32,000 nt of DNA from Labrenzia sp. CE80 (GCF_009650605.1 NZ_WAJT01000001.1:1449441-1481440), one strand, 5' to 3'; counted from the stretch's first letter, positions 15,674 through 16,017 are shown. Made by a program: numbers and translations. The notes: generated by a model from the letters alone, not told the origin.

Positions 15674-15964
15674 GTGAAGGCCTGCTGTGCCGGAATGCCA
15701 AAGGAACAGGACTTGAAGCCGGAAAATTCGACGTTCACGTCACTTAGCAGGCCCACACAGGGTCTTCGACCAACATCTCTACCATTACAGCAATTTATTT
15801 TCGAATGCTGGCAAAGCATCCGCTCTGTCGAGGATGGGGCCGTCGCAGACTATATTCCTGAACTGGCCAAGGCCAATCCCGATGATTTCGGCATAGCAGT
15901 CACGACTGTTGATGGCCACGTCCATATGGCGGGCAATGCTGAAACCGAATTTACGATACAGTCC
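15674..15964 (+). pseudogene. glsA: Glutaminase, 5' fragment truncated by prophage insertion
   Basis: The frame reads ...LQQFIFECWQSIRSVEDGAVADYIPELAKANPDDFGIAVTTVDGHVHMAGNAETEFTIQS, a glutaminase N-terminus. Similarity ends where the catalytic S-x-x-K motif (QSISK) should follow; instead it reads CSAQVHLAF into the phage-end repeats. The start is uncertain (GTG 15674 or TTG 15713). Confidence 0.8.
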
Positions 15965-15967
15965 TGT

Positions 15968-16011
15968 AGCGCGCAAGTTCACTTGGCATTTCGCGCAAGT
16001 TCACTTGGCAT
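15968..16011. repeat. Two tandem 22-bp direct repeats at the prophage terminus (candidate transposase end-binding sites)
   Basis: AGCGCGCAAGTTCACTTGGCAT / TTCGCGCAAGTTCACTTGGCAT: 20 of 22 nt identical, with an exact 22-bp period, starting 3 nt after the terminal TG at 15965-15966. Confidence 0.6.
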
Positions 16012-16017
16012 CCGATT

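Follow-up and report, generated by a model that had tools for sequence, protein, structure and literature searches.

In Escherichia phage Mu (Muvirus), the MuA sites R1 (CACGAAAAACGCGAAA) and R2 (CACGATAAATGCGAAA) lie 22 nt apart, inside the end of the phage genome that adjoins the late genes and mom. Mu avoids the DNA of mature tRNAs while sampling leader and trailer regions. Mu-like siphophages are also found in marine Rhodobacteraceae, with RcapMu as one member and Rhodovulum phage RS1 and Rhodobacter phage RC1 as others; the last two have alphaproteobacterial hosts, as does the phage described here. The RS1 terminus begins with TGTAGCGCG and carries two sites at a 22-nt period, and it sits 114 nt after a 3' fragment of tRNA-Phe. 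Unlike in the phage described here, this two-site end of RS1 is the repressor/transposase end, and its site sequence (ACGRAAAYATTGCACC) differs. RS1 and RC1 have a CI-like repressor and the order of the MuA and MuB genes in common with the relatives of this phage, but their tail module, with a lambda J-like central fibre, is a different one. The Mu-like prophages phiA to phiC of marine Citromicrobium are flanked by 5-bp duplications, and whereas their replicative transposition is genome-wide, their lysogenic integration is reported to favour a small number of hot spots, namely one intragenic zone of 40 bp and six positions on the chromosome, which are not tRNA genes (PMC12486242). By description, these prophages resemble the phage described here in being alphaproteobacterial and Mu-like. 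Outside the phages, Tn7-like and Tn5053/Tn402-like transposons (TnsB/TniA, TnsC/TniB and TniQ) use a transposase and an ATPase related to MuA and MuB. They insert in an oriented way: the closely packed right end comes to lie nearest to the site that they recognise, in many cases a tRNA gene or a recombination site.

The window analysed here is a 32-kb stretch of DNA in which host genes meet phage genes. To the left of the junction lie alphaproteobacterial housekeeping genes (guaA, a TPR protein gene, rsmB, guaB, rlmE/ftsJ and ppx). Over its last 290 residues, the product of the Ppx ORF shows 100% identity to a protein named as coming from Labrenzia (now Roseibium) polysiphoniae. To the right, all phage genes of the window are on the minus strand and are transcribed towards the junction. 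Position 15965 is very probably the attR of a Roseibium (Labrenzia) polysiphoniae prophage that belongs to the Mu-like transposable siphophages, with a left end and a second copy of AGTCC predicted at the other side of the element.

The host gene at the junction is glsA. The plus-strand frame from 15674 to 16168 encodes the N terminus of a glutaminase and translates as VADYIPELAKANPDDFGIAVTTVDGHVHMAGNAETEFTIQS, followed by CSAQVHLAF. The earlier note had described this frame as a clear glutaminase up to EFTIQS, ending at 15964, with CSAQVHLAF in place of the catalytic S-x-x-K motif, and both points hold. The frame matches the Pfam Glutaminase profile PF04960 (E=4e-16), and when it is aligned with eight publicly available glutaminase fragments, all invariant columns are intact up to FTIQS. 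After FTIQS the family continues with I/V-S-K, which completes S-x-x-K, whereas the window reads C-S-A-Q-V-H. Because the family columns are kept through FTIQS and I/V-S-K is absent beyond it, the break can be placed between 15964 and 15965, within 1 nt on either side. The remaining 5' fragment of glsA (15695-15964, plus strand) consists of 90 codons, from the Met to EFTIQS. A functional GlsA has a beta-lactamase-like fold of about 300 amino acids with S-x-x-K, whereas here the Lys is missing and the match covers only profile positions 1 to 55 of 286. As the gene is split after the codon for the catalytic Ser, it is inactivated, so that the glsA of the window is, as read from its coding sequence, a truncated and inactive gene (a pseudogene). 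The last 5 nt before the break, AGTCC (15960-15964), are predicted to be the left copy of a 5-bp target-site duplication, by analogy with the duplications GGTCC, GCTCT and CTATG of related elements. A search of metagenomes for an uninterrupted glsA of relatives, using a codon-degenerate pattern for QQFIFECWQ, gave 0 matches. The matches listed by a protein search with the glsA N terminus were short fragments of at most 57% identity, and no fetched locus contained a homologue of glsA or of its flank, or an empty glsA site in a relative.

The DNA from 15965 onward opens with TGTAG, after which CGCGCAAGTTCACTTGGCAT occurs in two exact copies of 20 nt with a period of 22 nt. TGTAG (15965-15969, plus strand) forms the terminus of the right end of the prophage, and its 5'-TG is the proposed point of cleavage and joining; conservation across loci begins exactly here. 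The first putative transposase-binding site, which is R1-like, occupies 15970 to 15989 and the second, R2-like, 15992 to 16011 (both on the plus strand), and the family consensus of this site is GCGCAAnTTCnnnTGGCA. A TG start followed by tandem repeats at a 22-bp period had thus been correctly recognised from the window, as had the likeness of this layout to R1 and R2 of Mu, which also have a 22-nt period. When a 14-mer core was sought with up to two mismatches, only the two repeat copies were found in the 32 kb, where 0.24 matches are expected. The recurrence of the same end at more than 60 independent loci shows that the repeats are more than chance, and from their position, period and conservation we infer that they are transposase-binding sites. 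No further copy occurs within about 600 nt of the end, even when five mismatches are allowed. An inverted 17-nt match between 15691-15707 and 15977-15993 was judged to be a chance match.

The comparison with Mu, whose R1 and R2 are located at the late-gene end, fits the window end being the right end. Like Mu attR, the window end has a 5'-TG terminus and two sites at a 22-nt period at the end next to the late genes, and a DNA modification gene lies nearby (mom in Mu, a Dam-type methyltransferase gene in the window). A 5-bp duplication is found in members of the window's end family, as are the MuA domain set and homologues of Gp36, the portal protein, F, I and T. However, the site sequences are unrelated, save for a short TTCAYT-like core at another offset, and an inverted third site is absent within 600 nt of the window end. 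Mu has a contractile tail, whereas that of the window phage is probably non-contractile and of the GTA type. The end family also differs from Mu in having an S24/CI-like repressor, a B protein that scores as AAA_22/TniB, and insertion sites that appear not to be random. The earlier note also pointed to an octamer shared with the left end of Mu. The Mu sequence that it gave (TGTATTGATTCACTTGAAGTACG) was exact, but the octamer says little about a relation to Mu. In Mu, TTCACTTG starts at base 9, and in the window at bases 14 and 36. Within the family the stretch varies (TTCACTTG, TTCGTTTG, TTCGAATG and TTCAAATG), and GCGCAA and TGGCA are the constant parts. Because the octamer thus falls in the non-conserved part of the consensus site, at an offset unlike that in Mu L1, we consider the match weak evidence.

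The same end occurs in many other genomes. A genome collection was scanned with an 18-nt core; for collections of viral and metagenome sequences, the degenerate terminus TGTANCGCGCAANTTCNNNTGGC served as the pattern. After dereplication there were 61 loci of the right-end type, with TGTAGCGCGCAAnTTCnnnTGGC and a second site about 22 nt further on, and 10 of the left-end type, with TGTAACGCGCAA...TGGC followed by short CGGGAAT-like repeats. At every locus, similarity starts exactly at the TG and the outer flanks are unrelated. This recurrence at many loci identifies the TG as the terminus of a mobile element, and it bears out the reading of 15965 as a prophage/host junction formed by a Mu-type end. 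The hosts include Roseibium, Phyllobacterium, Mesorhizobium, Ensifer, Chelativorans and Rhizobium. None of the loci returned from the genome collection had the adjacent pair of sites seen in the window, each having a single copy, and the exact 20-mer repeat was absent from the viral contigs. The phage collection held no close DNA relative of the window phage. The phage in the metagenome contig L035/L043 matches window positions 19774 to 31998 with 89% DNA identity. Left ends of the family carry one terminal site (TGTAAC...) and a second site about 95 to 140 nt inward. The inverted copy of the tandem repeat pair that the earlier note expected at the far end is therefore not what this family has. 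At one left-end locus (L030) an S24 repressor gene is accompanied by a MuA-like gene, of which only the N-terminal part is present and which is 39% identical to the transposases of RS1 and RC1. Pfam matches identified MuA and a MuB-type ATPase in another locus with the same ends (L213), and a right end (L022) and a MuA gene (L246) share one IMG/VR contig, which stops before the left end. Identity between the MuA proteins of the family lineages is at most 49%. Ten metagenome matches (cttgttgttcacTGTAACGCGCAAATTCAGCTGGCAG) consisted of conserved sequence with constant surrounding bases, not of element ends, and were left out of the counts of right and left ends as unclear.

Two complete relatives were found by a plasmid search, both on the 2.4-Mb replicon p_1 of Rhizobium lusitanum 629. 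They are unannotated Mu-like prophages. L071 (1860-43197 of the locus; NZ_CP050307.1: 518859-560196) measures 41,338 bp and is flanked by the duplication GGTCC, and L174 (1923-42861 of the locus; NZ_CP050307.1: 621422-662360) is about 41 kb long and is flanked by GCTCT. Both begin with TGTAGC and finish with GTTACA, with the 5-bp direct repeats immediately outside. A mini-element of 6.9 kb (L039) likewise has TG...CA termini and a 5-bp duplication, CTATG, while the duplication of L139 is imperfect. Both termini were thus read in these three elements (L071, L174 and L039), and the window provides the TG at 15965-15966. Based on Pfam, the MuA of L071 is an 818-aa protein with HTH_Tnp_Mu_1, rve and Mu-transpos_C domains, and the prophage also encodes an AAA_22/TniB ATPase, a ParB-like protein and the head proteins Portal_Mu, Phage_Mu_F, Mu-like gpI and gpT. 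Its S24/CI repressor gene faces the left end. L174 has tblastn homologues of most of the Mu-type genes of L071. The genes for the tube, terminator, tail completion, Gp36 and chaperone proteins of L071 are 32 to 57% identical to those of the window and follow in the same order from the two-site end. The R. lusitanum 629 prophages thus share with the window element the end family (TGTAGCGCGCAAAATC...TGGCA, with a further site) and the order from connector to tail tube, but they differ from it in distal tail genes and cargo, and neither prophage adjoins a tRNA gene. L071 and L174 probably indicate what the rest of the window element looks like.

Reading inward from the window end, the first gene (16018-16323, minus strand) encodes 101 amino acids and has its 3' end 6 nt from the repeats. 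It gave no Pfam, PHROG or PADLOC match, and a homologue of 42% identity occupies the equivalent position in L134. The next gene (16360-18330, minus strand) is a candidate defence or accessory cargo gene. Its product of 656 amino acids combines pentapeptide repeats with a TIR domain (Pfam Pentapeptide, 1.3e-45; TIR_2, 3.6e-18) and gives a weak PADLOC match to SAVED_TIR, and the gene is absent from the 89%-identical relative L043. It is followed by a gene for a Dam-type (D12 class) N6-adenine DNA methyltransferase (18625-19446, minus strand; PF02086; PHROG 56). Homologues of this enzyme with 52 to 60% amino acid identity are encoded 0.1 to 2.5 kb from the right end in eight other loci; loci with this arrangement include L024, L026, L031, L032/L040, L102 and L107. 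Then come a DUF2793 tail-fibre-like protein (19765-20490) and a 1317-aa GTA-type distal tail or host-specificity protein (20487-24440), both on the minus strand, with 80% and 63% amino acid identity, respectively, to homologues in L035 that adjoin the same kind of end. The tail tip or baseplate genes (NlpC/P60, the Gp84_N/BR0599 hub and DUF2460) and the tape measure gene occupy 24440 to 28645 on the minus strand. The tail assembly chaperones, tail tube, tail terminator and Phage_tail_S virion morphogenesis protein are encoded between 28642 and 31467 on the same strand, with 32 to 56% amino acid identity to L071. The last gene in view (31479-31997, minus strand) encodes a head-tail connector of the Mu Gp36 family (PF07030, E=3e-38), with 57% identity to its counterpart in L071. 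This connector is a hallmark gene of Mu-type phages that lies inside the window. Mu-type morphogenesis genes are thus represented in the window by Phage_Mu_Gp36 and Phage_tail_S; the window's counterparts of the portal, F, I and T genes seen in L071 would be located past 32000. There is no tail sheath gene among the phage genes of the window, which suggests a siphovirus-type tail. All 16 kb of late genes are intact ORFs with strong family matches.

Taken together, the shared ends, the complete relatives and the shared genes place the window element in a Mu-type transposable phage family. The phage DNA would have entered the chromosome by DDE (MuA-type) transposition. In the proposed course of events, the transposase would bind the two sites spaced by 22 nt beside the terminal 5'-TG, pair the right end with the left end and join the 3' ends of the phage DNA to staggered target cuts 5 bp apart. 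The target would have been inside glsA, 560 nt downstream of a tRNA-Gln gene, and the gene would have been split after the catalytic Ser codon. The copy in the window presumably retains its left end, the transposase genes and the AGTCC duplication. The main alternative is that the end is a genuine Mu-type right end which belongs to a rearranged or decayed remnant, the left end or transposase having been lost or an adjacent deletion or inversion having occurred, so that no matching 3' fragment of glsA exists. Solo or abutting ends and mini-elements do occur in this family (L012, L039, L087/L140 and L134), and the window ends before the far end of the element is reached. The phage of L043 is 89% identical to that of the window and the host flank 92%, and such similar divergence fits long residence and vertical descent. 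However, the late genes of the window, the two perfectly matching end sites and the glsA fragment are all intact, which speaks against advanced decay of the element. In the alignment with the eight glutaminase fragments there is no sign of decay in glsA, suggesting a fairly recent event. We consider a remnant unlikely.

As a single case, the prophage at this junction is a textbook transposable prophage that inactivates a metabolic gene. For annotation, it provides an exact prophage boundary, identifies glsA as a pseudogene and points to a slot for variable cargo beside the end, occupied here by the genes for the TIR-pentapeptide protein and the methyltransferase. Beyond this locus, it establishes what the ends look like in a large family of Mu-like siphophages that has so far largely escaped annotation; the family occurs in Roseibium, Rhizobium, Mesorhizobium, Ensifer and related genera, and the boundaries of its members can now be called to the base. 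Of wider interest than the junction itself is where the members of this family insert.

A host tRNA-Gln(CTG) gene (15331-15404, plus strand; ARAGORN; Rfam tRNA, 62 bits) faces the prophage end with its 3' end, at a distance of 560 nt. Related hosts resemble the window only as far as 15405, directly after this gene. There, the phages of L043/L035 and of the Roseibium MAG L003 are inserted 100 nt past the orthologous tRNA-Gln. The spacer between the tRNA gene and the TG is completely different in the window and L043, and the host similarity (92%) ends at the 3' end of the tRNA. A related strain with 93% DNA identity in the host genes (L070) represents the empty site of the L043/L035-type insertion. 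Its order is tRNA-Gln, 100 nt, CCCCGGAACT directly followed by GGTGCCC, 47 nt and then the start of a DUF6538 integrase gene, which belongs to a tRNA-linked island. The layout of this empty site suggests that an integrase gene may lie beyond the left end of such elements. In relatives, the tRNA-Gln gene is a hotspot for integrase (DUF6538) islands.

This proximity to a tRNA gene is a property of the family. We counted 54 right ends with at least 200 nt of flanking sequence. A complete tRNA gene lies within 600 nt of 15 of them, with its 3' end facing the element, and three further ends have a tRNA 3' fragment of about 45 nt at that position. Four more ends that are less clearly classified also follow a tRNA. 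Only 2 of the 24 usable left ends have such a gene or fragment beside them. Flanking DNA further out contained a single tRNA in 153 kb, which corresponds to about 0.2 expected. The tRNA-side right ends, about a third of the total, are always in the same orientation. At least 11 kinds of tRNA are involved, including Gln-CTG, Gln-TTG, Ser, His, Pro, Phe, Thr (two), Ala, Arg and Met. The distances of these ends range from 38 to 560 nt; they are clustered at 38 to 101 nt with a tail at 369 and 560 nt, and the spacers are unrelated in sequence. The homologues of the methyltransferase, tail or 101-aa proteins that the tRNA-adjacent ends carry assign them to the phage family. No other Rfam RNA gene adjoins the right ends without a tRNA. 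No integrase gene was detected beside left ends in a BLAST search with two island integrases, which is a weak test.

These results affect the claim in the earlier note that the element inserted by random transposition and not by an integrase. Mu-type transposition is supported by the TG...CA termini, the 5-bp duplications and the MuA genes of the relatives, but the tRNA bias speaks against the word random. The flanks are unrelated in sequence, as expected with little target specificity, yet 18 of the 54 right ends face a tRNA gene or fragment; with the tRNA-Gln gene 560 nt upstream of the window end and the oriented bias of the family downstream of tRNA genes, random insertion becomes doubtful.

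The oriented insertion of Tn7-like and Tn5053/Tn402-like transposons resembles the right-end-first, tRNA-proximal bias of the family. On one alternative reading, the TG marks the end of a non-phage cargo transposon of the Tn7 or Tn5053 type (with a TnsB/TniA-type transposase), which would carry the TIR and methyltransferase genes and would lie beside an unrelated prophage. Closely spaced 22-bp sites at the end nearest to the target are typical of Tn7, the B protein of the family matches Pfam TniB, defence-like cargo adjoins the ends, and the right ends are biased towards tRNA genes in one orientation. Such a transposon is nevertheless very improbable here. The complete elements with these ends are whole Mu-type phage genomes, that is, phages and not cargo transposons. 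The window's tail genes accompany this end in L035/L043, and its methyltransferase gene does so at eight loci. In the window, the stretch from the end to the tail genes has neither a gap nor a second boundary. The early region of L213, the one element checked, lacks TnsA and TniQ domains. In addition, the distance to the tRNA varies in the family (26 to 560 nt), and many members do not adjoin a tRNA. Least probable of all is that a tyrosine or serine integrase acted at tRNA-Gln, with the TG repeats internal and the glsA piece part of the element: the tRNA gene only 560 nt away and the integrase (DUF6538) islands at the tRNA-Gln of relatives call for caution, but among the window ORFs from the junction to 32000 there is no integrase gene, a second copy of the tRNA-Gln 3' end is absent from the 32-kb window, similarity to related prophages sets in at the TG instead of at the tRNA, the tRNA-to-TG spacers of the window and L043 are wholly different, and the family has 5-bp duplications and MuA genes, with many members far from any tRNA.

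Returning to insertion by Mu-type transposition, selection for harmless sites may contribute to the tRNA bias, but a hundred-fold enrichment in a fixed orientation is not easily explained by selection alone. We see about an even chance that these Mu-like phages, a widespread family in Hyphomicrobiales, are guided in their lysogenic insertion, with the right end leading, to DNA immediately past tRNA genes or past the tRNA 3' fragments that remain at the attachment sites of integrases. The targeting signal could be the conserved T-arm/acceptor DNA, the bent arms of integrase attachment sites or a factor working with the TniB-like ATPase. As selector, a phage protein, the TniB-like ATPase itself, a host factor or bent attachment-site DNA might be considered; a TniQ-like selector was rejected, as this domain is absent from the early region of L213 (one element). 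The insertion in the window, 560 nt past tRNA-Gln, might then be an instance of loose targeting that happened to destroy glsA. If targeting is real, it would be the phage counterpart of the 'safe-site' targeting of Tn7-like elements or of the Tn5053 'res hunters', and a new way for a Mu-type transposition system to choose a safe site. We found no description of tRNA-proximal insertion by Mu-like phages in the open-access literature that we searched. A strong preference for AT-rich targets was also considered and rejected, the effect being only modest. The majority of junctions appear to be intergenic, and the DNA next to them is slightly richer in AT, with a GC content of 0.56 to 0.58 beside the junctions compared to 0.62 further out.

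The right ends of this family of Mu-like phages lie close to tRNA genes far more often than expected. A tRNA gene, or a tRNA 3' fragment of about 45 nt, is found 38 to 560 nt upstream of 18 of the 54 right ends, where about 0.2 would be expected, and at these ends the orientation is constant, with the 3' end of the tRNA pointing towards the element. Left ends of the same phage family are tRNA-adjacent in just 2 of 24 cases. In the window, the tRNA occupies 15331-15404 and the phage end lies at 15965. The same arrangement is present at related loci in other genomes, viral contigs and metagenomes (L003, L010, L027, L032/L040, L035/L043, L077, L078, L087, L090, L097, L101-L104, L107, L110, L114, L126, L134, L135 and L144). 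The deposited genome of Rhodovulum phage RS1 (L067; NC_020866) opens with host DNA that contains the 3' 47 nt of tRNA-Phe (133-179), and the phage terminus, TGTAGCGCG, starts 114 nt past this fragment, at 294.

In related Roseibium strains (L070 and L073), a genomic island is located directly 3' of tRNA-Gln(CTG), and its first gene encodes a DUF6538-type integrase. The L070 locus (9062-9275; R. polysiphoniae-like strain, GCA_018424625.1) is also the empty site for the phage insertion seen in L003 and in the metagenome contig L043, and the insertion point lies downstream of the tRNA and upstream of the start codon of the integrase gene.

Two mini-elements carry both a left-type and a right-type end, one of 6.9 kb (L039, 244-7182; the same as L122) and one of 4.9 kb (L139, 2824-7726). 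The former is flanked by a clean 5-bp duplication, adjoins HK97-type head genes at its insertion site and encodes a repressor, an MTase and an OLD-like ATPase without a transposase. Both may be non-autonomous derivatives. In Roseibium marinum (L012, NZ_PPCN01000019.1, 7283-7340), an inverted right end (...GCGCGCTACA) faces a left end (TGTAACGCGC...) across a gap of only 9 bp (ACTTACACC), with no recognisable phage genes nearby on either side; these facing ends may represent tandem or remnant elements. A 31-bp palindromic solo end, TGTAGCGCGCAAATTCAAATGGCGCGCTACA, is present in L087 and L140, a partial copy of the end lies immediately outside the real end in L134, and in L074 tgtagctgtagc immediately precedes TGTAGC. 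These remnants suggest that the same spot was struck repeatedly or that they are footprints. One metagenome contig (Ga0105047_10000049; L081 and L120) has two right ends in opposite orientation, identical across at least 62 nt, which could be two prophage copies or the result of an inversion from replicative transposition.

In the window, the truncated glsA frame (15674-16168, plus strand) stays open for 68 codons past the junction, into phage-end DNA, so a GlsA'-fusion peptide of about 157 amino acids could be made. The longest ppx ORF (13233-15020, minus strand) has an Arg/Gly/Pro-rich N-terminal extension of about 270 amino acids before the Ppx-GppA domain; its true start is uncertain, because annotated homologues span 326 to 508 amino acids.

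The variable cargo slot of the window prophage, with tail genes on one side and the phage end on the other, is occupied by a gene for a 656-amino-acid protein with pentapeptide repeats and a TIR domain (16360-18330, minus strand), which may be a defence or anti-defence gene. This gene is missing in the 89%-identical relative L043, where the slot holds 3.6 kb of different genes.
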